DNA of 64,000 nt from an uncultured virus (IMG/VR IMGVR_UViG_3300021559_000006) (taxonomy: Duplodnaviria; Heunggongvirae; Uroviricota; Caudoviricetes), in IMG/VR virus record IMGVR_UViG_3300021559_000006, one strand, 5' to 3'. A program made the position numbers and the translations under genes. The notes below the pieces were generated by a model. It searched no databases. It saw nothing but the letters and a program-made list of their open reading frames with translations, and had not been told where the DNA came from. This document shows, one piece after another, positions 4,578 through 40,778 of this stretch. Within the stretch, counting starts at the first letter, position 1. Each line of letters opens with the position of its first letter.

Positions 4578-4957
4578 GCCTTCAGCACCGCCTCGACCAG
4601 ATACGCCACCGGCACACTGTCGGCGGCGTCCGTGGCGGACTGCGGCATCCGGCACACACTCAGCTTCGTCGCACCCTCCCACGGATCCACCAGGACCGTG
4701 CCCTTCGCCGCATCCACGACGATCGGGTCCAGGATCCGCCAACCGACATGCCCGGCCAGCTCGGAGAAGACCGCCACGCGCAGCTTCGCCGTACCGAAGT
4801 CACACCCCAGCCGTACCCACACCCGCCCCCACGGGATGTCCTGGTCGCCGTCCCACTCCCTCGGGAGCAGCAGCACCGTGGCGTGCTCCGGGTGCACGAC
4901 CTTGCCCGCAGCGTCCGCAGCGAAGCCGGGCTTGAGCTCACCAACAACGATCGCCAT
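4574..4957 (-). CDS. Hypothetical protein, in frame directly after the endolysin stop; possible cell-wall-binding partner
   Basis: GAGGAG RBS; ATG abuts the TAG of the upstream gene. Confidence 0.65.
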   Translation of the reverse strand: MAIVVGELKPGFAADAAGKVVHPEHATVLLLPREWDGDQDIPWGRVWVRLGCDFGTAKLRVAVFSELAGHVGWRILDPIVVDAAKGTVLVDPWEGATKLSVCRMPQSATDAADSVPVAYLVEAVLKA

Positions 4958-11783: not shown

Positions 11784-14663
11784 TCAGTGGTAGACCACGC
11801 CCGTGGTCGGGTTACGGCGGCCATAGCGCAGCGCCTGCGTCTGCACGATCCTGAACAGGGCTTGGCCGTCGACCTGCACGACGATGTCCGGCGGCTGACC
11901 GCCCGCGCCCGCACCGTTAGCGCCCACGGCGAGAGCGCCCAGACTCGGCCCGGATATGGCCATCGCACCGGCACCGATGACCTTCTTGGCCATATTGCTC
12001 GACGCCACAGCAGCATCAGGGCTGCCCTTGACTAGGCCGTTCACCAGACCCTCGGTCACACCGAGGCCGATCTCGTGGAACACCTTCGACGGCGAGTTGA
12101 TCCCAAGGATCTTCAACACCGGGCCGGGGATCACGGACTGGATCAGGCTGGAGATCTGGCTCGCGATCCACGAGCCCATCGACACAATGCCGTTCCACAG
12201 CCCCTCAATGATCGAAATCCCGGCGTTGTACAGCCACGACGCCGCACCAGAGAACCAGCCCAAAATCCGGCCCGGCAGTGCGGCCAGCCACGTCGCCGCC
12301 TTCACCCCAGCCGAGATCACGCCGTTCCACACCGCTTCGATCGCATGCCACAGCCACTGGCCGGTCATGACGATGCCCTGGAAAGCGGGTCGGATCCCGT
12401 TGTTGTACAGCCACATCGCGGCTGTCGCGATGCCGTGGAAAACCGGTTCGAACACCGAATGCCACAACCACAAAGCGATCACGGAGATCGACTGGAACGT
12501 GACCATGACGATGTTGCGGAACCAGGCGAAGTGCGTCCAGGCATACACCAGCGCAGCAACCAGGGCGGCGATCGCGATCACAACCAACCCGATCGGGTTG
12601 GCGTCCAAGGCGATATTCAGGAGCCACTCGCCCGCGGCAGCGGCTTTCTCCGCGACCGCTGTCGCAAGGAGAGCGATCTTCTCGCCTACCCAGGCGAGCG
12701 CCGCCCGGCCCGCGTTCAAAGCGCCCTCAAGGGCGGCCTTCGACATTTCGTACAGGCCGATCGCGGCGGTCTTCGCCGCACCACCCACCGTCTGGGCGAT
12801 GCCCATGAAACCGCGCCACGCCTGCCCGGCCTTACCCGCGCCAGCAACCAGCAGATCCTGCGTGCCCCGCCAGGCCTTCCCCAGGCCGGAGGCTGTCGCG
12901 ACCATCCCGGACTGGATGCCCGACCAGGCCTTTGACGCCCCGGCAGCTATCCCCCCCCAGGCGGTCGTGGCGGCACTTCCGGCGGCCTTCGCGCCGACCG
13001 AGATGCCCTTCCACAGGCCGTCCCAGCCGGTGCGCAGGGCCCCGCCGATCGAGCCCATCTTCCCGGAGAACGCCGAAGCGGCGACCTGTGAGGAGTTGAA
13101 GCCCTGCACCAGGCGGCCCACACCCTGCGCCGCGCTGATCCCGGCTTTGCCCAGTCCGCCCAATGCCTTCACGTAGGGGGTGAGGGCGCCGGTGACGAAC
13201 TTGAGGACACTGCCGGTAAGGATCACGCCGATCGCGATCGCGAGCGCCTCGCTGGCCGCCTTGTGCTGAGTGAAGAAGGTGATCGCGGAGGAGATGATCG
13301 GGATGAGCTGCATACCCAGCTTGATCGCCAAGACGTCCGCGCCCTGCCGCAACTGCGCCAACTGCACGCTTAGGAGCTGACTGGTCGACTTCCAGCCCTC
13401 GACGTCCTTCGCGCCATCATGAAACGACGTGTTGACCTTGGCGATGTTCGTCTTGGTGCGATCGGCGCTCTCTCCGGTCAGCAGAAGCGCGGTCTGCAAC
13501 CCCGTCTGCCCGCCGGTGGCCTTCGCGAGGAGATCCGAGAACGTGGTCAGCGGGCCGTTGCCCGCTTTCACGCCGTCGGAGAATCCCTTCGACTTCTCCA
13601 CCAGCGACATGAACTGGGTGGCCATCGCCGCCTGGTCGGCGGGCATCGCCTTGATGGCCTTCTTGAAGTCACCAATGCTCATGGTGTTGTCCATGAAGCT
13701 CTGCGCCACGGTCTTCAGGCTGGGCGGCATCGACGCGAGCATGGCGGTCGCGGACTGCGCGGCCTGCCCCGAGGCCTTGAAGACACCCGCCGCGTACAGG
13801 CCAGAGGGGCCCATCTTGGTCTGGATTGCGCCGACGATCTCGTTGAGGACGCCCGACAGGCCCTTTGTGCCCAGATCCTTGCCCACTTGCTGGGTGCTCA
13901 GGCCAAGCTGGTTGAGCGTGGAAACGGTAGTCGAGTTCGCCTTCTGGAGCCTGCCAAGCGTCCCTGCCATGAGCTGTGCGGAGTGCTGCGCCGTCTCGCC
14001 GTGCTGCGTCATCGTGGCCAGCGACCCGATGACATCGCCAAGACCAACGTGAGCGGCATACGCGGCAGGAAGGACCGTCGATAGCGCGGAGGAGAACAGC
14101 GCGAACGTGGTCTTAGCCTCGCCCGCACCGGTCTTCATCGCATTCATGACTTGCACCGACTGCGACGCCGGGATGTGGAAGTTGTTCATCACAGTGGTCA
14201 TGGCGCTGACCACGTCATTCAGCGGGGCACCTTCCTCGCGCGCACCCTGCGCCGCGACCTTCACCACATCCAGGCCGCCGTGCGCATAGTCGAACCCGGC
14301 CTTCTCGGCCTGGTACATGCCGTCGGTGACCTGCTGCCAACTCGTGCCCGTCGACGAGGCGATCTTCAGAATCCCGTCGCGGACCTTGCCCAGGTTCGTC
14401 TGCGCCTCGCCGGCGGCAGTGACCAGAACGTTGGTCTCCTGCTGGAACTCCGACGCCATGTGCACCGACGCGACGACGACAGCAGCACCGGCAAGCGTCG
14501 TGGCTTCGCCGATCTTGTTGACGGTCTTCCCGAGGCCGCCCATCTTCGAGGTGAACGTCTCTCCTTCGGCCGCCGCCGCCCTGAGGTTTCGCGTGAACGG
14601 GGCGGTCTCTGCGCGGAGAATCACGAACAGGTCGGCAACCTCAGACACGACGCCCCCTGTCAT
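11784..14663 (-). CDS. Tail tape measure protein
   Basis: 959 aa, Ala/Gly-rich; ANPIGLVVIAI, periodic Trp/Phe repeats, INSPSKVF. Confidence 0.95.
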   Translation of the reverse strand: MTGGVVSEVADLFVILRAETAPFTRNLRAAAAEGETFTSKMGGLGKTVNKIGEATTLAGAAVVVASVHMASEFQQETNVLVTAAGEAQTNLGKVRDGILKIASSTGTSWQQVTDGMYQAEKAGFDYAHGGLDVVKVAAQGAREEGAPLNDVVSAMTTVMNNFHIPASQSVQVMNAMKTGAGEAKTTFALFSSALSTVLPAAYAAHVGLGDVIGSLATMTQHGETAQHSAQLMAGTLGRLQKANSTTVSTLNQLGLSTQQVGKDLGTKGLSGVLNEIVGAIQTKMGPSGLYAAGVFKASGQAAQSATAMLASMPPSLKTVAQSFMDNTMSIGDFKKAIKAMPADQAAMATQFMSLVEKSKGFSDGVKAGNGPLTTFSDLLAKATGGQTGLQTALLLTGESADRTKTNIAKVNTSFHDGAKDVEGWKSTSQLLSVQLAQLRQGADVLAIKLGMQLIPIISSAITFFTQHKAASEALAIAIGVILTGSVLKFVTGALTPYVKALGGLGKAGISAAQGVGRLVQGFNSSQVAASAFSGKMGSIGGALRTGWDGLWKGISVGAKAAGSAATTAWGGIAAGASKAWSGIQSGMVATASGLGKAWRGTQDLLVAGAGKAGQAWRGFMGIAQTVGGAAKTAAIGLYEMSKAALEGALNAGRAALAWVGEKIALLATAVAEKAAAAGEWLLNIALDANPIGLVVIAIAALVAALVYAWTHFAWFRNIVMVTFQSISVIALWLWHSVFEPVFHGIATAAMWLYNNGIRPAFQGIVMTGQWLWHAIEAVWNGVISAGVKAATWLAALPGRILGWFSGAASWLYNAGISIIEGLWNGIVSMGSWIASQISSLIQSVIPGPVLKILGINSPSKVFHEIGLGVTEGLVNGLVKGSPDAAVASSNMAKKVIGAGAMAISGPSLGALAVGANGAGAGGQPPDIVVQVDGQALFRIVQTQALRYGRRNPTTGVVYH

Positions 14664-14721
14664 GGTCCAGTTGTGTCGTTCCTGTGGCCGCGATCACCGA
14701 TCGGGACTACGGTCGCCAGGC

Positions 14722-15034
14722 ATGACGCCCCGCACCCTGGCCGCCGTACTCGTGCTCGTTGCGTCGCCCCTGTTCACCGGCTGCGGATCCAGCAGCAAGC
14801 CCAGCCAGCAAGAGGGCGTCTACGCCCTCTCCGTTCAGCAGGCCGACCCCGCTGACTTCGGTCCTCGCCCCAACAGGCCACGGCATCTGCGACGACCTAA
14901 GGAACGGCCAGACAGAAGCCGACGAAATCGCGAAAGTCGGGGCGGGCTTCAACCAGAAGGAGACAGCAGCGCTCATCGCCGCAGCGCCGGCCCTGTGCCC
15001 CGACCAGCAGCCCAAGATCACACCGGCGGGTTGA
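14722..15034 (+). pseudogene. Frameshifted lipoprotein (DUF732-like), antisense within the tail operon
   Basis: Signal peptide and lipobox-like FTGC in one frame; GHGICDDLRNG...AAPALCP in another frame; span of 313 nt is not a multiple of 3. Confidence 0.7.
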
Positions 15035-15035
15035 C

Positions 15036-15488
15036 TCAGATCCCCTTCCAGCCCACCCCGAACTCTTTGCGGTACAGCGCCGGTGCGGCGACCGTCCACC
15101 CGAACTTCGCCGCTGGCTTCAGGAACGGATACGTCGCCCCGTTCTTCAATCCGGTCTCTAGGAACAGGCCGTACTTGCTCGACGGGGTCTTGCTGTACGG
15201 CGACGTGAAGCCAGCCCCGGTTCCGACCTTGCACTCCCAGCCCAGCCCGTTCGGGACGATGTCGGTGTGTGTGATCGACTTCACCAACGTGCCCGAAATC
15301 CGTGCCGGGCCCGACCCCGGACTCGCCGGAGTCGGCGTGCCGTAGGCGTGCGACCCGCTCGACGCATTGGTCTTGGCTTGCTTCTCAACGACGTTCGCCA
15401 GCCCAGTCAGGACCCTGCGGGTGCGCAGGCTTCCCTGCGCGGTGATCTCGGTCATAAGTCGGGTGAACACCCCGATCCGCAACTCCAT
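15036..15488 (-). CDS. Tail completion / neck protein (HK97 gp10-like)
   Basis: GPARISGTLVKSI...YGLFLETG...YPFLKPA motifs. Confidence 0.75.
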   Translation of the reverse strand: MELRIGVFTRLMTEITAQGSLRTRRVLTGLANVVEKQAKTNASSGSHAYGTPTPASPGSGPARISGTLVKSITHTDIVPNGLGWECKVGTGAGFTSPYSKTPSSKYGLFLETGLKNGATYPFLKPAAKFGWTVAAPALYRKEFGVGWKGI

Positions 15489-15491
15489 CTC

Positions 15492-15743
15492 TCACCCCTT
15501 GCTGGCCTTCTCGTTCGCGGCCTGCTCCGCGTCGCGCCGCGCCAGGATCAGATCCCACGTGAAGCGCCGCACATAGAAAGGGGTGTCCTGCAGGTCCCGC
15601 CACGTCCAGCCCATCTCCCGCATGACCTCGAAATCGACCAGCTCCTCGGGGGCAGGCCCAGAAGACCACGTTCCCTCGTACACGCTCTCGGCAGGCCAGA
15701 GCACGTCGTTGAGGTACGGGTCATCCAGGCCTAGATCCCCGGG
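15492..15743 (-). CDS. Tail assembly chaperone, -1 frameshift extension (gpT-like part)
   Basis: Open in the -1 frame from the C CCG GGG heptamer; MGWTWRDLQDTP motif. Confidence 0.75.
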   Translation of the reverse strand, partial: PGDLGLDDPYLNDVLWPAESVYEGTWSSGPAPEELVDFEVMREMGWTWRDLQDTPFYVRRFTWDLILARRDAEQAANEKASKG

Positions 15744-16087
15744 TTGACGACCCTCTTGATCTCTTCGGCGATCTGCTCGGTGATGCACATCGGGAGCTTG
15801 GCCACGGACTCCGCGGTCGCGGGAAGAGGCAGCGGCGGCTGATCGTCTTCGATGCTGGTGGCGTCGTAGACGTGCCAGGCCTTCACCAGCCCGGCGACGA
15901 CCTTGTACATCGCGGCCTCGATCTGGCGCTCGTCGGGCTTGCCGTCAGGGCCGAGAGGCAGGTCAGAGGGCATCAACTCGGCCATAGGGACCGTCCGCGG
16001 GTTCTTGATGACGACGTGGACGTTGTCACCATCCTCCGACAGATCGGGAAAGGGCAGCATGATCGTGCGGTTGGCGTAGCCAGCCAT
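15731..16087 (-). CDS. Tail assembly chaperone (gpG-like)
   Basis: AAGGAG RBS, ATG at 16087; follows the tail tube gene; LVKAW...VAKLP motif. Confidence 0.85.
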   Translation of the reverse strand: MAGYANRTIMLPFPDLSEDGDNVHVVIKNPRTVPMAELMPSDLPLGPDGKPDERQIEAAMYKVVAGLVKAWHVYDATSIEDDQPPLPLPATAESVAKLPMCITEQIAEEIKRVVNPGI

Positions 16088-16108
16088 AGAGGGCTCCTTG
16101 AAGCATTG

Positions 16109-16173
16109 GGAGGGCGTCGGAGGGCGTGTTCCCCGGTCGTGTCGGACGCCCTCCAAGCGGACACGACCGGGGA
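16109..16173 (-). promoter_or_regulatory. Structured intergenic RNA element: 14-bp hairpin with pseudoknot-compatible loop
   Basis: Stem 16130-16143/16160-16173; loop 16145-16154 complementary to 16109-16118. Confidence 0.6.
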
Positions 16174-16201
16174 GTAGCGGGAAAACCGCAGGCCGGAGGG
16201 C

Positions 16202-17371
16202 CTAATATGCGGCGGTCTGCCAGTTCTGGAGCGTGGCCTGCACGGCGCCGCCGTCGGTCGTGTTGTAGATACCGGCGAGGGTGAAATCCGCCTGGGCATA
16301 CACCTGACCCAAGTCCCGCTTGCCCTTGTACCAGCCCGACTTCGACATGGTCATGGACAGGAACTGGCCGCCGCGGGCTACCGGCTGCTGCAGGCTCGCG
16401 GTCGTCGCGGTCTGCGTGTAGTTGAGGTACAGGCCCAGGTCGGTCTGATTCTCGAAGATCGCCTTGTAGGTGCCGTCGACCTCGATCGGGCCGGCGAACA
16501 CCTCACGCGGGGCCTGCACGCCATCGGAGGACTGGATCGCCTCGGTCGTGCGCTTCACCGTGGCGTCGAACGTCAGCCCGCGCGTCGACGCGGCACCGGC
16601 GTTGGTCATGTTCCACGACCAGCCCAGCAGCGGGTCGTAGGTCGAGAACGTCTCCGTCTGCAGCGACTGCACCACCGACGGGAACGACATGTACTTCAAC
16701 GTGAGGGCCGCTGCTCCCTTCGGGTCGATCTTGACGCCGAGGTCCGACAGGCGGCAGTAGCTGCAGCTCAGCGTCTGCGTGGTGTCGTAGATCGTCAGCG
16801 AGTACGTCGGCAAAGCGGTCGTGGACTGCTTGAACGTGTGCGTCGTCGTCGTGGTCACCGCGACGCCTGACGCGTGCCCCAGGGTCAGTCCGACACGGTT
16901 CGCGCCGATCTTCCCCAGCACGGTGGTTACGTTCGACGTATACGGGCCGACACCCGTAGCAGCACCGTCAGTCCACGCGTACTCCACCAGACCCGCGGTG
17001 TCGATGCGGATCACGCTGCTGGCGGGGAGCGCCACGGCCGTCGTGATCACCGTCGCGCCAGCCGTCGTCAACGCCGACAGCGTCGTCGCGGTAGCTGCGG
17101 TCACCACATCGGGGCCGATGATCCCGGCCAGGAAGTGCCCAACCAGATCCGGATAGGCCATCACATCAATGTTCCACTCGGCGTGCACCGGCCCCTGATA
17201 CATGCCCTGCAGGACCGTGTCGTTGCCGCGCACCGACTCGTCCTTGATCTCCTGGAACATGTCCTCGTAGTCGCCCTTGAGGAACGGGATCCCGATCGTC
17301 GGCGCGCCCCACGTGCCGGGGGTGGACTCCTTGAACAGGCCCAGCGTTGCGGTACGCGAAATTTGGGTCAC
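16202..17371 (-). CDS. Major tail tube protein
   Basis: 389 aa, Thr-rich beta protein; LGLFKESTPGT start; position before the chaperones. Confidence 0.85.
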   Translation of the reverse strand: MTQISRTATLGLFKESTPGTWGAPTIGIPFLKGDYEDMFQEIKDESVRGNDTVLQGMYQGPVHAEWNIDVMAYPDLVGHFLAGIIGPDVVTAATATTLSALTTAGATVITTAVALPASSVIRIDTAGLVEYAWTDGAATGVGPYTSNVTTVLGKIGANRVGLTLGHASGVAVTTTTTHTFKQSTTALPTYSLTIYDTTQTLSCSYCRLSDLGVKIDPKGAAALTLKYMSFPSVVQSLQTETFSTYDPLLGWSWNMTNAGAASTRGLTFDATVKRTTEAIQSSDGVQAPREVFAGPIEVDGTYKAIFENQTDLGLYLNYTQTATTASLQQPVARGGQFLSMTMSKSGWYKGKRDLGQVYAQADFTLAGIYNTTDGGAVQATLQNWQTAAY

Positions 17372-17595
17372 AGCTGCGGCTCCTCACCGACGGGCGCCAG
17401 GTCGGGCGCGGCCTTCTTACGGACGGTCTTGGAGGGCGCGGCGGGGGGATCAGCCGGCCGCCGGGCGTCGGCCTCGTCGGTCAGTTCCTCGAATCCGGCA
17501 ATGGGGATCGGCCAGTCGACGACCTCACCCGGGCCGACCGTCGCCGGAATCGCGGGTACATCGACTGGGGCTTCATGGAGGGAGCGTTGGTACAC
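17368..17595 (-). CDS. Small virion-operon protein
   Basis: GTGA overlap with the tail tube start. Confidence 0.6.
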   Translation of the reverse strand: MYQRSLHEAPVDVPAIPATVGPGEVVDWPIPIAGFEELTDEADARRPADPPAAPSKTVRKKAAPDLAPVGEEPQL

Positions 17596-17657
17596 GGGGG
17601 CCTCCGGGCATGACGAAGACCCCCGCGGTAGGCGAGGGCCAGGAAGGGGTAGGAAGG

Positions 17658-18143
17658 TCAGCCGGCGGTTTCGGCGTCGTCCGCCCAGTACGTGATCTCC
17701 GCGTGGAACTCCGCATCCGGCGGCATCGTGGAGACCGGATCGACGAAATGCACCGCCACCAGCGGCGGATCCTCCGCCACCGACCGGAACCTGCCCCCGT
17801 GGGACTTGTCGCCCGGGAAGCCACCGATGCGCGTCAGAACAGCGTCTACCGCCACGTCGAACGCCCGCTGATCAGCCTCAGCAATGCCCTGACCCGAGGT
17901 GAGCGGCCAGATCAACTTGAGCGTGAACTCGTAGGACGCCATGCGGCGCACGTTCGCGAACCGCTTGTGGTGGATCGTGCGGCGCAGCACAAACAGGTTG
18001 CTGCCACGGCGACCCGGGGTGCGCGGCTGATACGCCTGCAGGTTGTTGAACTGGCCTGCGCCGGTACCCACCAGCGCAGGCAGCCCGTCGCCCGTTGTTT
18101 GAAGCCAGGCGACCTCCCTGTCGACCGAATCAGCGGTGCTCAA
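17658..18143 (-). CDS. Tail terminator-like protein
   Basis: AGGAGG RBS, TTG at 18143 overlapping the upstream TGA; synteny. Confidence 0.7.
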   Translation of the reverse strand: MSTADSVDREVAWLQTTGDGLPALVGTGAGQFNNLQAYQPRTPGRRGSNLFVLRRTIHHKRFANVRRMASYEFTLKLIWPLTSGQGIAEADQRAFDVAVDAVLTRIGGFPGDKSHGGRFRSVAEDPPLVAVHFVDPVSTMPPDAEFHAEITYWADDAETAG

Positions 18144-18784
18144 CGCGGCCTCCTGACCTTGCGGCGGTGAATGAACCCAGGCCGTTGAGCCCGGTAGTGG
18201 TGCACGCGCCGAATCTTGCGCACATGCGGCCGGTGCGCGGCGTGGTGCGTCGCCCGCTGCTTGAACACGTGCACACGCTTCTGGCCGCGGTGCACGGGAG
18301 GCCCGTGGCGGCGGTGCACTGCCCGGCCGCGCGGATGCGGAGACCGCCGCGGATGCGTACCCGCGCGGCGGTGCACACCGTGCCTGTGGTGTACGCCGGG
18401 ATGACCCTTGCGCTTGTGCTTCAGGTGGAAGTGACGGCGGCCGTGGTACTTCCGCTTGTGCAGCAGGCGGCGCTTGTGCAAGGTCCGGCGCTTGTGGAGC
18501 GTCCTGCGCTTGTGCTTCAGCTTGTAGTGACGCCGCTTGTGCGTCAGGTGGCGCTTGTGCTTCAGATGCCGCTTCTTCGCGGCATGCCGCTTGTGCTTCA
18601 GGTGGTAATGCCGACGATGTGCACGGTGGCGGTGATGCGCCGACTTCCGCCGATGATGCACACCGTGCCGATGGTGCTTGCCCTTGAGTGCACGGCTGAT
18701 CTTCGCCCGGGCCGCTGAGGACAGCTTGTGACCCCTGTGCGGATGCCGCTTGCCCGTATGCCGCCGCGCATGTCCCCAAGCCAC
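18140..18784 (-). CDS. His/Arg/Lys-rich protamine-like protein with N-terminal NUMOD3-like motif
   Basis: Fills the gap between adaptor and terminator genes exactly; GC3-biased codons (CAC AAG CGC); no Asp or Glu. Confidence 0.8.
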   Translation of the reverse strand: MAWGHARRHTGKRHPHRGHKLSSAARAKISRALKGKHHRHGVHHRRKSAHHRHRAHRRHYHLKHKRHAAKKRHLKHKRHLTHKRRHYKLKHKRRTLHKRRTLHKRRLLHKRKYHGRRHFHLKHKRKGHPGVHHRHGVHRRAGTHPRRSPHPRGRAVHRRHGPPVHRGQKRVHVFKQRATHHAAHRPHVRKIRRVHHYRAQRPGFIHRRKVRRPR

Positions 18785-18790
18785 GTCAGC

Positions 18791-19453
18791 CTACTTGCGG
18801 GTGTACGCAGCGAGGATCTCCAACGCATCCGCCCGCATCGCATCCGGATCATGCCCCGAACGCCCGTCAACCGGATCGAGCTGCTTCACAGCGATGCTCG
18901 CGGCCATGTACTCGCACGCCAGCACCAGATCAGCCGGCACCGTCTGGTAGCCGCCCGAATAGGTGGCCTGGATCGTGGTGCCCGGCGGCACATAGGTTCC
19001 AAGGGCGAAGCGGCAATGCCCGGTGTCGGCCTCGAACTGGATGTTCGTGATCGTCACTGCCTGGGAGCCGGAGTACGAGCGGTACAGCGTGATCCCCGTG
19101 ATCGCCCCGGTCCAGTACTCGGGGTACCGGCCTGGGAACTCCCTCACCCAGAAGTGCCGGGTCAGCAGCGTCGAACCCAGCGACTGTGCTCGCGAGAACC
19201 CCAACTGGCTCGTCGGATCCAGAGGCACATAGGCGTCCATGGCGTCTTCGATGTCCATGGCGTCGGCGCGCTGCGTCTCCACCAGGCCCGTGAAGGGCGC
19301 CAGGCGGCGGTCGCACGCCGACTCGCACGCCCGGGTGGCCTGCAGCATCAAGTTCGCCTGCGCCGTGCCGGAGTACCCCGAGACTAGGTTCGCGAACGGG
19401 CCTTCCGTGAAAGACGCCACGGAAGCAAGCGGAGTTGGATTGTCGGCAGCCAT
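18791..19453 (-). CDS. Head-to-tail adaptor (gp6-like)
   Basis: ATRACESACDR and TYSGGYQTVPADLVLA...ILAAY motifs. Confidence 0.82.
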   Translation of the reverse strand: MAADNPTPLASVASFTEGPFANLVSGYSGTAQANLMLQATRACESACDRRLAPFTGLVETQRADAMDIEDAMDAYVPLDPTSQLGFSRAQSLGSTLLTRHFWVREFPGRYPEYWTGAITGITLYRSYSGSQAVTITNIQFEADTGHCRFALGTYVPPGTTIQATYSGGYQTVPADLVLACEYMAASIAVKQLDPVDGRSGHDPDAMRADALEILAAYTRK

Positions 19454-19505
19454 CAGCGCCCACCCCCAATCGGATCGTCAGGAGACGGGCAAGGGTGAGG
19501 GGGTA

Positions 19506-19802
19506 CTACTCGGTGACCTCGGTCGGCGACGCCGCTGTCTTGCGGGTGTAGGCGCGCTTCTTCGGCGCAGGCGGATCAGCGACCGGAGCCTCGACCACTT
19601 CGCCCGAAGGCGCAGCCGCACCACTGTCCAGAGGCGACTCGGGGCCACTGCCGGGCTCGGGTGCCGCGACCTCGGAGAACCCGCCCTGAGGCATCGCCAG
19701 CAGAGCACCGGCCATGTCCGCGTCCACGTCGACGACATCGCCGTCGTTGTCCCACACGTAGCCGGGGCAGGACCCGGCCTGTTCCTTGCGAATGAGCGGC
19801 AT
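19506..19802 (-). CDS. Small capsid-associated protein with low-complexity tail
   Basis: GGAGG RBS; typical position after the capsid gene. Confidence 0.65.
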   Translation of the reverse strand: MPLIRKEQAGSCPGYVWDNDGDVVDVDADMAGALLAMPQGGFSEVAAPEPGSGPESPLDSGAAAPSGEVVEAPVADPPAPKKRAYTRKTAASPTEVTE

Positions 19803-19811
19803 CCCGCCCTC

Positions 19812-19991
19812 CTACTTCTCTGGATCCTTCGGCTGCTTCTTCGGGTCCTGGGCTGCTTCCCAGTCGCGGAAGAAGTCCTCCTTGTATGTCAGGTGCTTCC
19901 GGCAAATTCGGTAGCCCTTGACGGTCGTCTCGGCCTTGACCTCCGTGTTGTCTTTGAACAGACACACGCAGCACCACTTCACGGCAGACAA
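19812..19991 (-). CDS. 59-aa Cys/His zinc-finger-like protein absent from the ORF track (MSAVKWCCVCLFKDNTEVKAETTVKGYRICRKHL...)
   Basis: AAGGAG RBS, TTG start, CxxC...CxxH. Confidence 0.65.
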   Translation of the reverse strand: MSAVKWCCVCLFKDNTEVKAETTVKGYRICRKHLTYKEDFFRDWEAAQDPKKQPKDPEK

Positions 19992-20135
19992 GGGCGCTCC
20001 TTCGCGGTCGGGGTGACTCCGAGGCAGGGCGGAGGGCCCAGGCGTGAAGCCCGGGCCCTCTAGCGTCAGTGGACCTGGCTTAGGAACTCGCCGCCTATGT
20101 CGGTGACGACCGCAAAGCAGCCGTCTGACCTGCGG

Positions 20136-21497
20136 CTACAGGGTCGCGGCCACCCGACTCAAACGGCCGACATATTTCGGCCCCCGGACCGCGAGCGCAC
20201 TGTCAGTGAGGACCGCGAACGGCAGGCTGTCAGGGCTGGTGACGGTCGGAGCCAGGGGCAGGATCGTCATGTCGCGCACGTACGGGCGGACCAGGAAATT
20301 CGGGTCGCGCGGCACGAGGTACAGGTCCTCCTGCGCGTTCGCCGTACCGCGGGGCAGGGCACCGGTGTTGGTGTTCTGGTAGGCGGTGGGGCCGGTGTTG
20401 CCCGCACTGTTGGTCTGCAGGTTCGAGCCGGTGTCGATGACAGTGGTGACCGCCACACCGGTGGTGTCGAACGCGTCGATGGTGCCGAGGAGCGACTCGG
20501 TGGTCGTCGCCGTGCTGCGGTAGACCTTGTACAGGATCGGCGAGGCGCCGTCGGGCAGACCGGTCGGAGTGGAGAACGTGAGCGTCACCGTGGAGGTGGA
20601 GCCGGTAGTGACCTGCGACACCTCGGTGGAGGCGCCGATCTCCCCGAAGCGCGCCACGACCGCGGACACGCGGTAGTAGTAGGTCGCCGCAGCCAGCGTG
20701 CCACCGGTGGTGGAAGTGGCAGTGGCGACGGCACCCATGGTGTTGGTGCGCGGGCTCAGGAACGAGCTCTTGATGATGGGAATGTCACGGTACGTCGGCA
20801 CGTTCAGACCGCCGCCGACCATGGTGGTGGGCGCGGCGAAACGCTGCTGCGCCACAAACGCCTGCGACACGGCCGAGGCCATACGCGGCGACATGACCAG
20901 CATGAAGTTCGACCCGATCGGCATCGCCGCATTGGTCTCGACGAGGTCGATGAGCTGGTCGAGGTAGTGCAGCGCGAAGCTGGCGTTGATGTCCAGCGCG
21001 TTGACGTAGTTGCTGGACCCGGAGCCCGCAGTCCAGTTGGACACCAGGTAGTCCAGGCCCGAGCAGATCGGGAACTGGCCGGCGGCGGTCGCACCGTCGT
21101 TGCCCCAGATGAACGCGTTCTCCAGGGTGTACATCATCGACGTGACAGTGCCGTCGAGTTCGATCTGCCGCAGGTCGCCGACCACGTCGCGGGTCACAGC
21201 CTGGGCGAAACCAGTGACCGCGCCCACAGCCTGGAACAGGCGAATGTTGAACACAGCCTGCTCGTAGGTGCTGTTGCCGATCGGCCGGGCACCACCGTCG
21301 ACCACGCCACCGGAGTCCGGGCGAGACACGCGACGGTTGAAGAAGTACTGCGTCGAGTTCCACGCCCGGGTGGGGATCGCCGCCAGGAGCGGCGCGTAGC
21401 GGCGCTGGTACTCCAGGAGCAGCGGGTCGATGGACTTCGGGATCAACGGGGATACAGCACCCGCAGTGGTGATCGCTTCCTCGAGCTCCGTAGGCAA
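20136..21497 (-). CDS. Major capsid protein with inserted Ig/FN3-like domain
   Basis: 453 aa after protease/scaffold; ENAFIWG...GLD motif; GGTLAAATYYYRVSAV...YKVYRS insertion. Confidence 0.88.
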   Translation of the reverse strand: MPTELEEAITTAGAVSPLIPKSIDPLLLEYQRRYAPLLAAIPTRAWNSTQYFFNRRVSRPDSGGVVDGGARPIGNSTYEQAVFNIRLFQAVGAVTGFAQAVTRDVVGDLRQIELDGTVTSMMYTLENAFIWGNDGATAAGQFPICSGLDYLVSNWTAGSGSSNYVNALDINASFALHYLDQLIDLVETNAAMPIGSNFMLVMSPRMASAVSQAFVAQQRFAAPTTMVGGGLNVPTYRDIPIIKSSFLSPRTNTMGAVATATSTTGGTLAAATYYYRVSAVVARFGEIGASTEVSQVTTGSTSTVTLTFSTPTGLPDGASPILYKVYRSTATTTESLLGTIDAFDTTGVAVTTVIDTGSNLQTNSAGNTGPTAYQNTNTGALPRGTANAQEDLYLVPRDPNFLVRPYVRDMTILPLAPTVTSPDSLPFAVLTDSALAVRGPKYVGRLSRVAATL

Positions 21498-21509
21498 CGG
21501 AGTCTCCTC

Positions 21510-21594
21510 TCATGCAAAAGCCCCGCGCCGGAATCCCGGGCGGGGCTCGAAGTGATGGGGGGTCATGCGAAAGCCCCGCGCAGTGGCGGGGCTT
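21510..21594 (-). terminator. Two tandem terminator-like hairpins between scaffold and capsid genes
   Basis: AGCCCCGC/GCGGGGCT stems each followed by T runs; 19-nt direct repeat with one mismatch. Confidence 0.6.
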
Positions 21595-21612
21595 GGAGGA
21601 GGGCGGTGCTGC

Positions 21613-23295
21613 CTACTGGACGGGGGCCGCGGGGATGCCGATGGCGCCGAGCATGATGTTGGCGCGGTCGGCGTACAGGTCCTCGATGTTGTCGGGGGCC
21701 TTGTCGTTCTCGTGGACACGGAAGCCCTGACGCTGCGGGGTGCCGTATTCCTTGAGCATCGACTCGCGCAGCTCGTCGCGCTGCTTGGCGAGGGCCTCGG
21801 CGAGCTTGGCGTCCATGCTGGCCTGCAGCTCGGCGACGGTCTCGGCGAGAGCCTTCTTGCCGCTCTTCTCCTTGACGACCGGGGCCGGGGCGGTCTCGGT
21901 GGCCTTGGTCTTCTTGCCGGCCTTGGGCGCAGACTCGGAGACGGCGGCCAGGACAGGCGCCAGGTTCTCCTTGAGGACGACGCCGAAGATCGCCCCGAGG
22001 GCCTTGAGGTCTTCGTCGGTGAAGGACCGGGCAGGGGCCGCGGTCTCAGTGGTCGGGGTGGGCTCGCCCATGGCGGCCTCCTCCTCGGTGGTGGTGGTGA
22101 CCGCGCCCGTGCTGGGCGAGGGGGTCTGAGGGAGGGCTTCGGTGACTGTGCGGGCGGGCGGGGCCACGGCCTCGACGACGGGAGCGGCTGCGGTCACGGC
22201 GGTTTCGCCGGTGCCGTCCATGTCGTCGTCGGTGTCCTCGGCCGGGGCGCCGGGTACGTCGACGTCGCCGTCCATGTCCGGGTCGACGGCCTGGAGAGCG
22301 TTGATCGCGGCGTCCATGGCGGCTGCGGCGATGACGCGCAGGTCGGCCGGGTCGATGGAACAGTTCCGGATCGTCAGCGACGTGGGGCCGTTGTAGGCGT
22401 CGATGCAGAACCCTGCCGCACCGCCCGGGCCGTCGGGGTAGTACTCGCGGACGTCGGAGTAGCGGGTCGTGGACTCGTTCATGGAGCCGTCCTTGTTCCA
22501 GGTGTCGGGGATGAGCGCGGACAGCCCCATGGCGGCGGCGCGCTTGATGATGAAGGCCCGGATCTTGTCGTGGTCGGCTCCGCCGCGGCCGACCGCGCGG
22601 ATGGCCTTGCGAAGCTGTGCCTTGGACTTGATCGGGTAGGCGGGTTCGCCGTCGGCGTTCTTCATCGCCTGGCCCTTGGCGAGCGCCGCCCGCTTCGCCT
22701 TCGCCGACAGCTCCTGGACGGGCGCGTCCTCGGTGACGGCCTCGACGGTGGCTTCCATCGACTCGCTGATCGGGGTCCGGCCGCTGGTCGACTCGGCGGC
22801 GTCACCGGGGCGCACCCACGTGGCGGAGTCGACCGTCGCGCCGAGGACGCCGGGCGAGGCGGTGAAATCAACGGCGTCCACCTCAAGGTCCGAGGCTGTG
22901 CTAACGCTTTCGCCCTCATAGGTCACCGTCTTGACCGGGCCGAGCCAGTAGCCGTGGATGCTGACGGATCGCAGCGCCGGGGGCTGGCCCTTGCCAGGAA
23001 CGACGAGCGTTGCGATGTCGCGGCCGTGGGTGGTATCGAACAGGTCAGCGGCGTAACTGGCGCTGCCGTCCTCGCCAACCGTCACGCTCCGAAGGGCGCC
23101 CACTATCCGCACAGAGTCATCTCCGGCAGCGTGGTGCGAACGCATGACGATCGGCAGGCCCATGGGGTCTGCGATCCGTTCTTGCATGCGCTTGGCTGCG
23201 CTGGCGATGACCTCGCGGGTGTACAGGCGCTTGTTGCGGCTGACGCCGGGAGTGAGCATCGTCCCGGAGATCGTGGCGACCTTGCCGGCCATCAC
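21613..23295 (-). CDS. Capsid maturation protease / scaffold fusion
   Basis: GVSRNKRLY...H...SVSI.G...VDFTASPG protease motifs; internal basic domain (YPIKSKAQLRKAIRAVGR); coiled-coil C-terminus. Confidence 0.85.
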   Translation of the reverse strand: MMAGKVATISGTMLTPGVSRNKRLYTREVIASAAKRMQERIADPMGLPIVMRSHHAAGDDSVRIVGALRSVTVGEDGSASYAADLFDTTHGRDIATLVVPGKGQPPALRSVSIHGYWLGPVKTVTYEGESVSTASDLEVDAVDFTASPGVLGATVDSATWVRPGDAAESTSGRTPISESMEATVEAVTEDAPVQELSAKAKRAALAKGQAMKNADGEPAYPIKSKAQLRKAIRAVGRGGADHDKIRAFIIKRAAAMGLSALIPDTWNKDGSMNESTTRYSDVREYYPDGPGGAAGFCIDAYNGPTSLTIRNCSIDPADLRVIAAAAMDAAINALQAVDPDMDGDVDVPGAPAEDTDDDMDGTGETAVTAAAPVVEAVAPPARTVTEALPQTPSPSTGAVTTTTEEEAAMGEPTPTTETAAPARSFTDEDLKALGAIFGVVLKENLAPVLAAVSESAPKAGKKTKATETAPAPVVKEKSGKKALAETVAELQASMDAKLAEALAKQRDELRESMLKEYGTPQRQGFRVHENDKAPDNIEDLYADRANIMLGAIGIPAAPVQ

Positions 23296-23516
23296 CGCCC
23301 CCTTCCTCGCCGCACGGGCGTCGTCACGGTGGGTCTGGGCTGGCGGGGCTTGGATGCTCCGGCTGCGACGCGCAGGATCGCCGCGCGCACGGTGTCGTCG
23401 TTCTCGATCAGGTCGACCAGGAGCTCGGCGAGCGCCGCCTCGTCTTCGGCGGCCTCGACTTCCTCGCGGGTGACGATGCGACGCCGCTTCGGGGGAATGT
23501 CGTACACGGCACTCAC
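23292..23516 (-). CDS. Small hypothetical protein
   Basis: Four-base start/stop overlaps on both sides. Confidence 0.6.
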   Translation of the reverse strand: MSAVYDIPPKRRRIVTREEVEAAEDEAALAELLVDLIENDDTVRAAILRVAAGASKPRQPRPTVTTPVRRGRGR

Positions 23517-24052
23517 CTGCCCGTGATCCCGACCTGAGAGGTCAGGGCGGAGAACGTGCCCGTGACCGTCCACGCGACCCGGTACTGGCCGGCACCGGAC
23601 ACCAGGAGGTTCCCGTTGGTCATGCCGGGGCCGACACTGAAGCCGTAGGTTCCGGTCGCGGTGATCGCCGCGGTGGAGCCGACCGTGACCCAGTTGCCGT
23701 TCGCGTCCTGCTGCTGCAGCGAATAGGTGACGTTCGTGCCGCCGGTGAACACGGAGACCACGACGGACACGAAGAACGCGCTGGCGTTGTTGGGGAAGCT
23801 GCCCGCATTGGTGTTGCCGTTGGTCAGGCGCGCCCCGCTGACGACCGCTGACTCGGTGTAGACGTTGAACGCGGCCTGCGTCAGGACGTTGATGGCGCCA
23901 TTGGAGCCGCGGAGCCGGTCGAACGTCGTCCCGTTGAACACCAGCACCCCGGAACCGGGCACCGACCCGGGCGTGATCGAGTCGCCGGAGGCGACTTGGC
24001 CCATCACGTTGCCGGAGCCGTCGACCGGGGTGAACACCGGATTGGTGGGCAT
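23513..24052 (-). CDS. Beta-rich structural protein (head decoration / fibre candidate)
   Basis: GGAGG RBS; Gly/Thr/Asn-rich; within the head module. Confidence 0.65.
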   Translation of the reverse strand: MPTNPVFTPVDGSGNVMGQVASGDSITPGSVPGSGVLVFNGTTFDRLRGSNGAINVLTQAAFNVYTESAVVSGARLTNGNTNAGSFPNNASAFFVSVVVSVFTGGTNVTYSLQQQDANGNWVTVGSTAAITATGTYGFSVGPGMTNGNLLVSGAGQYRVAWTVTGTFSALTSQVGITGR

Positions 24053-24069
24053 GGCGGTGTACCTCCAGG

Positions 24070-25365
24070 TCAGGCGGGGGCAAGGATGCAGCGGCAGCTT
24101 GGATGCTGGGGCAATGCCGGGGCGGCGAAGGGGCTGTACGGGCCTTGCCCTGCGATGTCGTCGCAGCGTTGGCATACGGCGCCGTCGCCAGCGGTGATCC
24201 ATTGGAGGGCTTGGATGCCGGCGCTGATGTAGGCGGCGATGAGGCCCGCCCCGTAGGCGGCGGAGACGGCGAGGTCGACGGTGAGGGTGACGTCCAGGCT
24301 GGCGGCGAGGACCGCGGCGATGGCCGCGAGTGGATCCTCGTGGGTGTCGGCCATGGCGCGTCCGGCGCGGCGTGCGACGGCGGCGAGGATGCGGCCGAGC
24401 CAGCTGGTCGCGGTGGCCTGGGCTGTGGCGTCGGGCATCTCGGATGCGCCGAGCGTGTAGCCGCTACCGGTGGTGTCGTCGTACTCGCTGTCGTCGGCGA
24501 GGTCGGCGGTGGTGAGGTGGTGTCCGGCCTGCCAGCCCGCCGCGTAGGCGCGCTGTATGGCCAGGGCCAGCGCCGCGCGCAGTCTCTTCCAGGCCTGGGA
24601 GGTGAGGACGGCGAGGATCATTGCGGCGGCTGCCTCGCGGCGCTGCTGTTGTTGCTGGTCGAGTTCGCCGACTGTGCGCCGCCATGCCGTGAGGGCGGGG
24701 CGGAGCGTCAGGCCGTCGGCGTCGGCGCGCCAGGCGGCGAGGACGATCGCGTCGGCGGTGGCGTGCAGGGCCATGCGGCGGGCGTAGACCGGGCGCCATA
24801 CGCCCTGCGGCGAAGAGAGCTGGATGGTGGCGCTCTCGACCGTGCCGTAGTTCCGGATCGCCGCACTCTCGAATGGGGAGAGCGGGAAGTTGGTCCGCTC
24901 GTTGCCGTAGACGGCCGACACGGCAGTGAAAGCCACCGGGACGGAGGGCAGCCGATCCAGGGGAGTGTCGGCGTCCGGAGCGAGGTATTGGATCGTCAGA
25001 TGCGGCGTGTATCCGTGATCACGCGGGATCTCGACGCCCTGTGCGGTGAGCAGGTCCATCGTGTCGCGGCGTAGGTCTTCGAGGCCGGGTGAGTCGACCA
25101 GGGCGACGACGACATCCTGCTCGCCGCCAGTGAATCGGGCGTGACCAGAGACACTGGCCTCGATCGGTCCCCGACCTGCCAGCGACTGCGCGACCTTGAG
25201 CAGGGTGCTGCGGTCGACTTCGGCCGTGCCGCCGAGGTAGGCCACGGTGACGTGCATCTCAGCCGGATCGAGCCCGTCGGCCACGGCCAGATCGTCAGCG
25301 AGTTGCCGTGGCGGATAGAGGGCGATCATGCAGCCATCGGAGTAGTCGGGGCTGGCCACTGCCAC
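24070..25365 (-). CDS. 2H phosphoesterase (2'-5' RNA ligase-like) fused to a Mu gpF-like minor head protein
   Basis: HVT and HLT 2H motifs; C-terminal WITAGDGAVCQRC...PQHPSCRC. Confidence 0.85.
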   Translation of the reverse strand: MAVASPDYSDGCMIALYPPRQLADDLAVADGLDPAEMHVTVAYLGGTAEVDRSTLLKVAQSLAGRGPIEASVSGHARFTGGEQDVVVALVDSPGLEDLRRDTMDLLTAQGVEIPRDHGYTPHLTIQYLAPDADTPLDRLPSVPVAFTAVSAVYGNERTNFPLSPFESAAIRNYGTVESATIQLSSPQGVWRPVYARRMALHATADAIVLAAWRADADGLTLRPALTAWRRTVGELDQQQQQRREAAAAMILAVLTSQAWKRLRAALALAIQRAYAAGWQAGHHLTTADLADDSEYDDTTGSGYTLGASEMPDATAQATATSWLGRILAAVARRAGRAMADTHEDPLAAIAAVLAASLDVTLTVDLAVSAAYGAGLIAAYISAGIQALQWITAGDGAVCQRCDDIAGQGPYSPFAAPALPQHPSCRCILAPA

Positions 25366-25467
25366 CCCCTTGGGCTTCCGGGCGGCGGTCAGCCGATCTC
25401 CTTGGCGATCAGCGGGCCAACATCCTGCGCGCGGGTCGGGTGTCCACCGTCCATTGAGGTCACCTCC

Positions 25468-25659
25468 TCAGCAGTCGACCGGCGCGAGGAGTTCATCCGG
25501 ACGCGGCAGGCCATGCAAGGTCATGTAGGCGTGGACTTCGTCGAGGCGGTCGAACGGCCCGACGGGGCGCCCGTCGTTGTGCCGGTACCAGCGCACCTCG
25601 AAGCCGCCTGCGGCAGTGGGGTCGAGTTCGGCCGTGTGGCCGCGCAGCTGCTCGCTCAC
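25468..25659 (-). CDS. Small hypothetical protein
   Basis: AGGAGG RBS then GTG. Confidence 0.55.
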   Translation of the reverse strand: MSEQLRGHTAELDPTAAGGFEVRWYRHNDGRPVGPFDRLDEVHAYMTLHGLPRPDELLAPVDC

Positions 25660-25746
25660 TGAACCCCCTCCTGATGCGTCTTCTCGCAGTCGCGGGCCAG
25701 CGACGGCACCGGATACACCACGCCGCAGCCGGAGCAGGTCCATGGG

Positions 25747-29927: not shown

Positions 29928-29943
29928 CGGCCGCCTCCGCGAC

Positions 29944-30702
29944 TCAGGAGATCAGCGCGCGCAGGTGCTTCGGTACGACGTCGGGGACGAGTGCCAACTG
30001 TTCAGGGGAGAGGCGCAGATCGGAGAGGATGCCCCGGATGGCCTGCGCGACCTGCTCGCCTTGGGACTCGGCGAGCTTGACGCGACGCTCCTCGATGCCG
30101 GCCCGAATGGCTTCCGAGCAGACCTTGACGAGGTGGGCGCGCTCGGTTTGGTAGAGCCGGAGCCAGACGTTGGGGCCCGCTTCGTGGGTATCGCCGCGGT
30201 CTTCGCCGCCGGTCTTGCTGCGGACCTTGCCCCAGACGAGCGGGTTCTCAGTATCGTCGCCTGTCGCCTGAGTCTCGATCTCCTGGACGCGTTCCCGTAG
30301 CCAGGCGACGTGCCCGGCTGTCCACTTGACCTCTTCAAGGAGGGCTTCGGTGGCCGTGGTCTCGATTTTTCGGCCGTAGGTCTGCATGATCGCGCGCGCC
30401 CTTTCCTCGATGAGGCGGCGCTGGGCGGCGGCCTTGTTCTGGGGTGCGTGCCCGCCGTGGAAGCCGCAGATGGTCTGCCCTTTCAGGGCCCAGCAAGGAC
30501 AGCGCTGGCCGGGGCTCTTCGGGTGGTTCTTCGACAGGTGGGCGGTGCAGCGCCGCCCGTCGGGGATGAAGTGCTGGTTGCAGTAGTCAGTGCCCGGCAA
30601 CTTCCGCTGCTCGCAGCGCTGGCCGCGCAACTCGGGGCGCTGGCGGTACTTCTCGCCGTAGATGCCGCTGCAGCGCTCTTCGTCTGGCGGCACACTGGCC
30701 AT
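29944..30702 (-). CDS. terS: Terminase small subunit (zinc-finger / HGG-type N-terminus)
   Basis: Directly upstream of terL; C..C..CGFHGG motifs; helical C-terminus. Confidence 0.75.
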   Translation of the reverse strand: MASVPPDEERCSGIYGEKYRQRPELRGQRCEQRKLPGTDYCNQHFIPDGRRCTAHLSKNHPKSPGQRCPCWALKGQTICGFHGGHAPQNKAAAQRRLIEERARAIMQTYGRKIETTATEALLEEVKWTAGHVAWLRERVQEIETQATGDDTENPLVWGKVRSKTGGEDRGDTHEAGPNVWLRLYQTERAHLVKVCSEAIRAGIEERRVKLAESQGEQVAQAIRGILSDLRLSPEQLALVPDVVPKHLRALIS

Positions 30703-40749: not shown

Positions 40750-40778
40750 CGTGGTGCCTTTCTCCCAGCGGGCTGGGG

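Follow-up and report, generated by a model that had tools for sequence, protein, structure and literature searches.

Some double-stranded DNA viruses of eukaryotes condense their genomes with protamine-like proteins, such as the core proteins VII and mu of adenoviruses and P6.9 of baculoviruses. In tailed phages, neutralisation and handling of the packaged DNA are generally ascribed to small cations and a few folded proteins of the neck, and we know of no tailed phage that uses such a polycation in its particle. A precedent for extra virion proteins in tailed phages is given by the internal proteins IPI-III of T4, which are packaged with the DNA and injected; these carry an N-terminal targeting peptide, gain entry by way of the scaffolding core and are not polycationic repeat proteins. 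Here we analyse a gene for a polybasic protein (hereafter PB) in a DNA stretch of 64,000 nucleotides (nt) from an uncultured virus of the Caudoviricetes (IMG/VR record IMGVR_UViG_3300021559_000006), which we call the window. The gene lies among the head and neck genes, and its product carries a unit related to NUMOD3. According to the account given in PMC3664794, NUMOD3 is a minor-groove-binding alpha-helix present in the DNA-binding domains of the homing endonucleases I-TevI, I-HmuI and I-BmoI. As outlined in bioRxiv 10.1101/2024.12.10.627806, the DNA end in the neck of phage 80alpha is capped by a protein located in the lumen, and the channel has a negatively charged lining; gp51 of this phage (equivalent to lambda gpZ, SPP1 gp16.1 and HK97 gp10) is located in the neck lumen with a positive surface toward the DNA end.

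The PB product has 214 amino acids (aa), including 49 His, 51 Arg and 27 Lys (59.3% together) and neither Asp nor Glu, a recount that reproduces exactly the figures of a first-pass annotation made from the sequence alone. The window contains 374 stop-to-stop open frames of 100 codons or more, and among these the PB frame ranks first for His+Arg+Lys (H+R+K; 0.59, against a median of 0.19 and a 99th percentile of 0.39) and also for His content. Furthermore, Lys makes up 12% of it and 0-3% of the other basic-rich open frames listed; together with the extreme H+R+K rank, this indicates that the composition of PB is not a product of off-frame reading in G+C-rich DNA (68.8% G+C in the whole window). 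The G+C content at codon positions 1, 2 and 3 of the PB open reading frame (ORF) is 0.74, 0.48 and 0.805, the same pattern as in the other genes of the window picked by high third-position G+C (GC3).

It should be noted that the same DNA is also open in two further frames, one belonging to an overlapping 373-aa ORF on the same strand and the other to an antisense in-phase ORF of 207 aa (Table 1). If either of these were the true coding frame, PB would not be a gene. Both are open in the window, and among the 19 homologous genes described below the shifted sense frame is stop-free in 10 and the antisense frame in 9, the latter having at least one stop in the other 10. However, the GC3 of these two frames is 0.48 and 0.74, compared with 0.81 for the PB frame, and in the relatives it ranges from 0.48 to 0.71 and from 0.61 to 0.75, compared with 0.77-0.91 in the sense frame of the 19 homologous PB genes. 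In addition, the 373-aa ORF is conserved solely from the TTG at 18143 onwards, the start shared by all homologues (VSTADAVDREVAWL...), and neither alternative translation has a Pfam match. The ratio of non-synonymous to synonymous substitution rates (dN/dS, Nei-Gojobori, 13 pairs) was 0.146-0.577 for PB and 0.128-0.585 for the adaptor gene in the same pairs. Because of the GC3 contrast across frames and the adaptor-like dN/dS, we take the His/Arg/Lys frame as the gene, and we regard a different coding frame as extremely improbable. The codon and substitution patterns thus show PB to be a real gene under selection; the first-pass annotation, which had judged the ORF to look translated from its GC3-biased codons, was right on this point, and the coupling signals discussed below agree with it.

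Another aspect to consider is the family to which the protein belongs. A word-indexed protein search gave two weak matches (P0001 and P0002), the first pointer to NUMOD3, a motif that had already been likened to residues ~18-36 in the first-pass annotation. In an alignment of 15 members (A1), 13 match the Pfam family NUMOD3 (PF07460), with a best E value of 9e-28, and the relatives L014 (24.4 bits) and L016 (22.1 bits) exceed its gathering score of 20.4 bits; the window copy has one unit and falls below Pfam reporting. Against a hidden Markov model (HMM) of the family unit, built from 58 repeat units of 10 relatives that match PF07460, residues 18-38 of the window protein score 32.3 bits, and the best of 1000 composition-preserving shuffles scored 7.0. 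BLASTP aligns the window PB with that of L014 over residues 1-97 (E value 7e-17), which comprise the MAWGH start, the unit and the RRHYHLKH repeats, and places the window unit on the NUMOD3 unit of L014. These scores and alignments show that residues 18-38 are a genuine NUMOD3-type unit and that the window PB belongs to a family of polybasic NUMOD3-repeat proteins.

When the family profile was compared with 1.84 billion representative proteins, 3370 matched at E<=1e-3 and 194 at E<=1e-10. Among the best 150 of these 194 there were 35 small polybasic proteins of 102-228 aa, with H+R+K of at least 35% and Asp+Glu (D+E) of at most 3%, and the other 115 were larger (median 292 aa) and of ordinary composition. 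A Pfam scan of 48 of the best 150 found NUMOD3 in all 48, GIY-YIG-type domains in 9 and HNH in 1. In the window PB and the 15 members of A1, Pfam detected no nuclease domain (GIY-YIG, HNH or other). We define the family by small size, by these limits of composition, by at least one NUMOD3 unit and by a gene placed directly after that of the head-tail adaptor; the window PB fits this definition, with 59% H+R+K, no Asp or Glu, one unit and a gene directly after the adaptor. The repeat unit is homologous to the NUMOD3 of I-TevI and I-BmoI (GIY-YIG) and of I-HmuI (HNH). Unlike these homing endonucleases, the PB family has neither a nuclease domain nor a helix-turn-helix module, is nearly without acidic residues, and has a long polybasic tail and a fixed place in the structural operon. 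It has up to 10 NUMOD3 units by pattern count, against the three predicted in I-BmoI in the account of PMC3664794. The family derives from the DNA-binding part of homing endonucleases, with the nuclease domain gone and the acidic residues removed. Its proteins are built of NUMOD3 minor-groove helices, 1-12 in tandem, followed by an Arg/His/Lys tail that is predicted to be disordered; the window copy has kept a single unit and carries charge-keeping HLKHKR-type repeats in place of the others.

The family, which accounts for at least 35 clusters (50% identity) within the 150 best matches, is nameless in the libraries searched, since no named family of PHROGs, Pfam, NCBIfam or PADLOC covers the polybasic proteins. 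NCBIfam yielded just a sub-threshold match of 13.5 bits to a group I intron endonuclease, for L007, and the weak PADLOC matches (to a type I specificity subunit and a homing endonuclease model) reflect the NUMOD3 repeats. The PDB sequence search with the PB protein of L012 gave no match and the ESM Atlas no usable one; P0003 carries the name 'hypothetical protein'; and an exact-sequence cluster look-up found 0 of 5 locus-derived PB proteins, for which GTG starts read as V or other start calls may be the reason. Full-text searches of the literature outside subscription journals returned no description of polybasic NUMOD3-repeat proteins, in line with the remark of the first-pass annotation that no equivalent was known in tailed phages. 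Judged from sequence, PB is an unnamed variant of a known DNA-binding module, and its interest lies more in the family than in one unusual ORF.

As regards the genetic context, the gene downstream of PB encodes a 161-aa protein with no PHROG or Pfam match, and the terminator profile had no match in PDB sequences. Its AlphaFold2 (AF2) model, with a predicted template-modelling score (pTM) of 0.76, gave 13 Foldseek matches at E<=1e-3, among them p142 of T5 (8bcp_B, TMq 0.65), lambda gpU (3fz2) and the R4C stopper-terminator complex (8gtf). By virtue of this terminator fold, PB sits between the adaptor and the tail terminator. The adaptor-seeded search recovered 14 loci in viral contigs, with 51-100% identity (L001 being identical to the window), and 6 loci in genomes (four Streptomyces spp., S. 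yunnanensis and Kitasatospora humi). Homologues that keep the His/Arg/Lys frame were found directly after the adaptor: a full-length polybasic ORF (171-247 aa) is present in 12 of the 14 viral loci and in 3 of the 6 genome loci (L015, L016 and L019), and a basic ORF of just 73 aa in the viral locus L005 and in two genome loci (L017 and L020). Thus, some polybasic ORF follows the adaptor in 13/14 viral and 5/6 Streptomyces/Kitasatospora loci, although some loci are one element in two collections, as indicated by the identical proteins of L002/L015 and of L005/L017. In L006, a S. griseocarneus-type prophage, the slot (4753-5529) holds an unrelated 258-aa ORF with hydrophobic stretches, a GC3 of 0.67 and no Pfam or PADLOC match, which looks like a recent replacement of PB; in L018, the ORF scan of the slot showed no ORF starting near the adaptor stop.

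Searches seeded with PB used single proteins, as the alignment A1 was too variable to serve as seed. They added six contigs (L023-L025 and L027-L029) and L031, and in all seven the match directly follows an adaptor homologue; P0044 as query had no match in viral contigs. The order major capsid protein, small gene, adaptor, PB, terminator, small acidic gene and tube is complete in L023, L024 and L031, and the GC3 filter hid some ORFs in the remaining ones. The best explanation for these observations is that PB belongs to the late genes of a lineage of temperate siphophages from Streptomycetaceae. The subtype of PB does not follow the kinship of the adaptors: the His-rich type stands beside adaptors 85% (L016) and 51% (L014) identical to that of the window, and L002, whose adaptor is 84% identical, has a PB of the NUMOD3-array type, 32% identical to that of the window. 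This discordance points to exchange or to an old polymorphism within the lineage. As a separate observation, a 47-kb metagenome contig of 63% G+C (L033) has at 3534-4025 a His/Lys/Arg-rich ORF with KGLKHPHKG repeats, which resemble the linkers between NUMOD3 units with the helix absent. This ORF is two genes upstream of a gp10-like neck gene (PHROG_5, 8.8e-5), so that a similar gene may exist in a second lineage; it is a single and weaker case (tblastn E 1e-5, GC3 0.74).

With respect to the properties that are maintained, 20 PB proteins contain 10 Asp or Glu in 4088 residues, compared with 10% of such residues in the adaptor, and net Arg+Lys amounts to +47 to +83 in the 18 full-length proteins, across the repeat architectures. 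His varies from 6 to 25%: three proteins (those of the window, L016 and L014) reach 17-25%, and the remaining 17 have 6-16%. These compositions show that the conserved property is the Arg+Lys charge with near-absence of acidic residues, and that His content is not conserved. Most members have 4-10 NUMOD3 units by pattern count; the window, L016 and L014 have one or two units plus HYHLKHKR-type repeats. The PB of L031 (3453-4298; 281 aa, with no acidic residue) has two units followed by some ten repeats rich in Lys and Ala, of the MTAAQ(K/R)AARKAKMSAAIK type, and arrives at the same charge by a third route. Actinobacterial nucleoid proteins HupS and Hlp and histone H1 have Lys/Ala-rich basic tails, which the L031 repeats recall by composition; the PB proteins are without an HU or globular domain. 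At the DNA level the NUMOD3 arrays are tandem repeats of 57-66 nt with 75-82% matches, and therefore they grow and shrink by duplication. The window gene has 18-nt (6-aa) repeats at 18453-18515 and 18532-18601, as located by Tandem Repeats Finder (TRF).

The first-pass annotation had proposed that PB is a protamine-like bulk condenser packaged in the head, with a switch based on His protonation that would make it tight in acid and loose at neutral pH, or a metal-binding plug. In favour of this model, the window PB is an extreme polycation, with 23% His and a computed net charge of about +82 at pH 7 and +123 at pH 5 (simple Henderson-Hasselbalch, His pKa 6.0), and it is encoded among head and neck genes. 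Like the adenoviral VII and mu and the baculoviral P6.9, it is small, Arg-rich and essentially without acidic residues, and is located among late or structural genes. Nevertheless, this comparison is one of composition alone, we found no sequence relationship between PB and those core proteins, and PB differs from them in its structured minor-groove motif, its His content and a likely low copy number. The His-based switch is unlikely as a conserved function, given the lower His content in 17 of the 20 proteins. One molecule neutralises about 80 phosphates, so by simple arithmetic a genome of tens of kb would need hundreds to thousands of copies. The GTG start, the weak ribosome-binding site and the coupling to low-copy neck genes speak against the model as well. 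Furthermore, relatives manage with the 73-aa form or without PB, and these short forms, the L006 replacement and the L018 slot in which no ORF was found argue against an essential bulk structural role. We consequently see little likelihood in the condenser or plug model.

The signals that couple PB to its neighbours are evident in the sequence. As the first-pass annotation had pointed out, the start codon is 6 nt after the adaptor stop, and the TGA stop overlaps the TTG of the conserved downstream gene (TTGA). In the relatives, the distance from the adaptor stop is 0-12 nt, and the terminator start overlaps or closely follows the PB stop (GTGA, ATGA or TTGA). The C-terminal Arg run, nearly universal in the family, is coded by AGG AGG in 17 of the 20 genes, where the pair lies among the final six codons and 5-10 nt ahead of the start of the terminator; L010 and L031 have no in-frame AGG AGG and show GGAGG after the stop instead, and L011 has GGG AGG. 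As AGG AGG is the ribosome-binding site of the next gene, the terminal poly-Arg is at least partly a by-product. At the same time, the layout of AGGAGG and overlapping starts implies passage of the ribosomes through the whole PB frame. PB would thus be translated by coupling to the adaptor, and its AGG AGG would serve the tail-terminator gene. Contigs from a soil metatranscriptome (X3) cover 12000-30000 at a flat depth of ~5-11, in which RNA and carried-over phage DNA are inseparable; the long pieces of X3 over 12000-22135, PB included, differ from the window at 1 base in all, and the runs X10 and X12 gave short pieces alone.

The same embedded signal could be the whole reason why the frame stays open, if PB were a decaying and functionless remnant of a homing endonuclease through which ribosomes read to reach the binding site and start of the terminator gene. 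The NUMOD3 units without nuclease domain would fit such a remnant, as would the nucleases carried by the nearest non-polybasic relatives (the 9 GIY-YIG-type and 1 HNH proteins among the 48 scanned), the terminal Arg run explained by the needs of the next gene and the 73-aa version that is enough in some phages. However, a dN/dS held at 0.15-0.44 is too low for a spacer free of selection at the protein level. In addition, the near-total exclusion of Asp and Glu over 4088 residues would be unexpected, as single-base changes in His, Lys, Gly and Ala codons create them, and the net charge is held within +47 to +83 across three repeat architectures. A functionless remnant is in our opinion quite unlikely.

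The AF2 model of PB, obtained with a 15-row alignment, has a mean predicted local distance difference test score (pLDDT) of 66 and contains three parts: a helix at residues 23-37, in the NUMOD3 unit (block pLDDT 87); a single long helix at residues 49-125 (block pLDDT 83-98 across 51-110); and residues 126-214 with no secondary structure (block pLDDT 45-54 in the blocks from 121 to 214). An amphipathic helix or coiled coil at residues 49-125 was rejected, since the hydrophobic moment is 0.08 at 100 degrees. As predicted, the long helix has no hydrophobic face or acidic residues and, if formed, would probably form only on a polyanion. A complex prediction with the adaptor, the terminator and residues 1-60 of PB scored 0.00 and is neutral on binding. 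The N-terminal 'MAW' (Trp) motif was considered as a targeting signal and dropped, since it is present in 9 of the 35 polybasic representatives; this low share also sets PB apart from T4 IPI-III. Several members (e.g. L007, L008, L023, P0015 and P0044) have a short non-basic tail motif in common, NASxKTLQVRY or SNxT(I/V)LQxKL...NRRLVLxAL, in which hydrophobic residues alternate as in a beta-strand, so that it could be a docking strand; RVHVFKQR is found at about the corresponding place in the window protein.

Regarding the role of PB, our preferred reading, which we hold tentatively and at somewhat less than even chances, is that PB, present in low copy number, associates with the DNA of the phage itself when the head is completed. 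With its charge of about +80, it would bind DNA without sequence preference, as we infer from the combination of minor-groove helices and polycation; its copy number would resemble that of the neck proteins. PB may bind the packaged genome, or the genome end, in the negatively lined neck/tail channel, and would then travel with the phage DNA into the next cell. This reading is favoured by the fixed position between adaptor and terminator, by the coupling to both neck genes and by the precedent of the 80alpha neck, and the weak start signals favour the low copy number. PB and gp51 of 80alpha are alike in being encoded between the adaptor and terminator genes. They differ in that a separate gp10-like gene exists in the window phage, beyond the tube gene (Table 1) and correctly located outside this slot by the first-pass annotation, and in that PB has no PHROG_5 match; its predicted structure (short helix, long helix, disordered tail) is different too. 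With families of head-closure (stopper) or tail completion proteins PB had no PHROG or Pfam match, and no fold search was made with its model.

A more specific version of the head-completion reading, as a whole rather doubtful, is that PB is a dedicated polycation carried in the tailed-phage particle. The leading DNA end, lying in the neck/tail channel with its negative lining, would be occupied by a small number of PB molecules with charges of +50 to +80, made of minor-groove helices of endonuclease origin, which would keep it in place once packaging is over. At infection PB would be the first to enter; this cationic leader could be drawn into the cell, together with the DNA end, by the membrane potential (negative inside), and the PB coat would protect that end against nucleases. 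For the His-rich subtype (the window, L016 and L014), a pH-dependent charge would be expected as well.

Several observations weigh against the preferred reading, and part of them speak for the main rival explanation, namely that it is an accessory (moron-type) gene lodged in a permissive gap of the structural operon and acting in the cell. A DNA-, RNA- or polyanion-coating polycation of this kind could protect incoming or replicating phage DNA against host nucleases, or it could compact the host nucleoid or silence it. The slot is not inviolable, given the unrelated, lower-GC3 ORF of L006 and the absence of an ORF found in L018, and the 73-aa basic ORFs of L005, L017 and L020 are without a NUMOD3 unit. 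Across the family the length of PB ranges from 73 to 281 aa and the repeat number from 0 to 10, with fast turnover by tandem duplication. Its identity to most relatives is 32-37%, far below that of the adaptor (up to 85%), so that it diverges much faster than its neighbours. Such variable length and repeat number and low identity are, at the level of sequence, the behaviour of an accessory gene, and the subtype is out of step with adaptor relatedness. Further points against the preferred reading are the following: the Shine-Dalgarno sequence upstream of the PB start is weak; the window protein has no Pfam NUMOD3 match even at E<=10; no relative was found among 50,697 deposited phage records (blastn with 5.3 kb, tblastn with the adaptor and the L012 PB protein); and the confident long helix could be an artefact of a low-complexity repeat in the AF2 model, unlikely to be stable alone. 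The ancestry in freestanding DNA-binding modules of homing endonucleases speaks for the accessory gene, as freestanding homing-endonuclease genes typically lodge between conserved phage genes. On the other hand, PB is at the adaptor/terminator junction in every locus of the lineage that carries the gene and is tightly coupled to both neck genes, its dN/dS is no higher than that of the adaptor, and no PADLOC or anti-defence family match of note was obtained. We consider an accessory function in the cell a serious alternative, if a somewhat unlikely one. A role in lysis was rejected, as the endolysin gene is about 13 kb away and nothing speaks in its favour.

The features of the window are collected in Table 1. 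Some of the neighbouring genes deserve mention in their own right. The portal ORF appears to bear an intein, with LAGLIDADG_3 at residues 563-606, and its residues 333-699 give PHROG matches to terminase, primase and helicase-loader families, typical of intein-bearing families. The 431-aa protein has an N-terminal 2H phosphoesterase domain (2_5_RNA_ligase2, 5.7e-12; Acb1 anti-CBASS as a weak, sub-threshold match, 3.6e-4), and its residues 367-430 match head-morphogenesis or MuF-type minor head protein families, so it could be packaged enzyme cargo. At 794-2797 (minus strand) there is a 667-aa protein that joins an HNH endonuclease region (~39-121) and a DNA helicase region (107-499). An FtsK/SpoIIIE-like protein (38647-41313, minus strand; PHROG_31069, 1.4e-83) and an 'excisionase' PHROG match (42257-43180, minus strand; 5.7e-27) are encoded upstream of the structural genes.

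Table 1. Coordinates of the PB gene, its parts, the overlapping frames and the neighbouring genes in the window.
Feature	Position	Strand	Evidence or remark
PB gene	18140..18784	minus	214 codons, GTG start; syntenic homologues, dN/dS
Sole retained NUMOD3-type unit, residues 18-38 (GHKLSSAARAKISRALKGKHH)	18671..18733	minus	family-unit HMM, AF2 helix, alignment to L014 unit
His/Lys/Arg repeat region, residues 49-125, HLKHKR-type, 6-aa period	18410..18640	minus	TRF period 18 nt; AF2 long helix
Arg/His/Pro-rich C-terminal tail, residues 126-214, predicted disordered	18143..18409	minus	AF2 pLDDT, composition
AGGAGG in PB frame (codons Arg211-Arg212), embedded Shine-Dalgarno	18149..18154	minus	5 nt upstream of TTG of next gene
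Overlapping 373-aa ORF	17658..18779	minus	GC3 0.48 across PB stretch
Antisense in-phase 207-aa ORF	18095..18718	plus	GC3 0.74
Terminase large subunit	28365-29927	minus	
Portal, 876 aa	25747-28377	minus	Pfam Phage_portal, residues 77-335
2H-phosphoesterase/MuF-like protein, 431 aa	24070-25365	minus	PHROG/Pfam
Major capsid protein	20136-21497	minus	PHROG_752, 5.5e-29; Pfam SU10_MCP
Head-tail adaptor, 220 aa	18791-19453	minus	PHROG_442, E 1.1e-5
161-aa protein with predicted tail-terminator fold; its TTG start overlaps the PB stop	17658-18143	minus	AF2 and Foldseek
Small acidic gene, 75 aa, kept in relatives	17368-17595	minus	between terminator and tube; no PHROG/Pfam match
Tail tube	16202-17371	minus	Pfam Phage_tube_2, 31.4 bits (cut-off 27)
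HK97 gp10-like tail completion/Neck1 gene, displaced to after tube gene	15036-15488	minus	PHROG_5, E 4.4e-5
Tape measure protein	11784-14663	minus	PHROG/Pfam
Endolysin	4958-5602		~13 kb from PB

The prophages that carry PB reside in culturable Streptomyces and Kitasatospora strains, among them Streptomyces sp. PH10-H1 (L016, His-rich type), Streptomyces sp. SDr-06 (L015, NUMOD3-array type) and Kitasatospora humi RB6PN24 (L019), so its role is open to a bench test. Depending on the site of action, PB would be a holder or leader of the DNA end, a DNA coat injected together with the genome, or an accessory protein that coats DNA inside the cell. The family also reveals a clear evolutionary route, in which the DNA-binding module of a selfish endonuclease lost the nuclease and the acidic residues and expanded in tandem into a protein defined by its charge. 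Its sequence is free to shift among NUMOD3 arrays, His/Lys/Arg hexapeptide repeats and Lys/Ala repeats while the charge stays. Under strong selection and encoded right at the head-tail junction, such a conserved polycation would represent a new kind of part for tailed phages.

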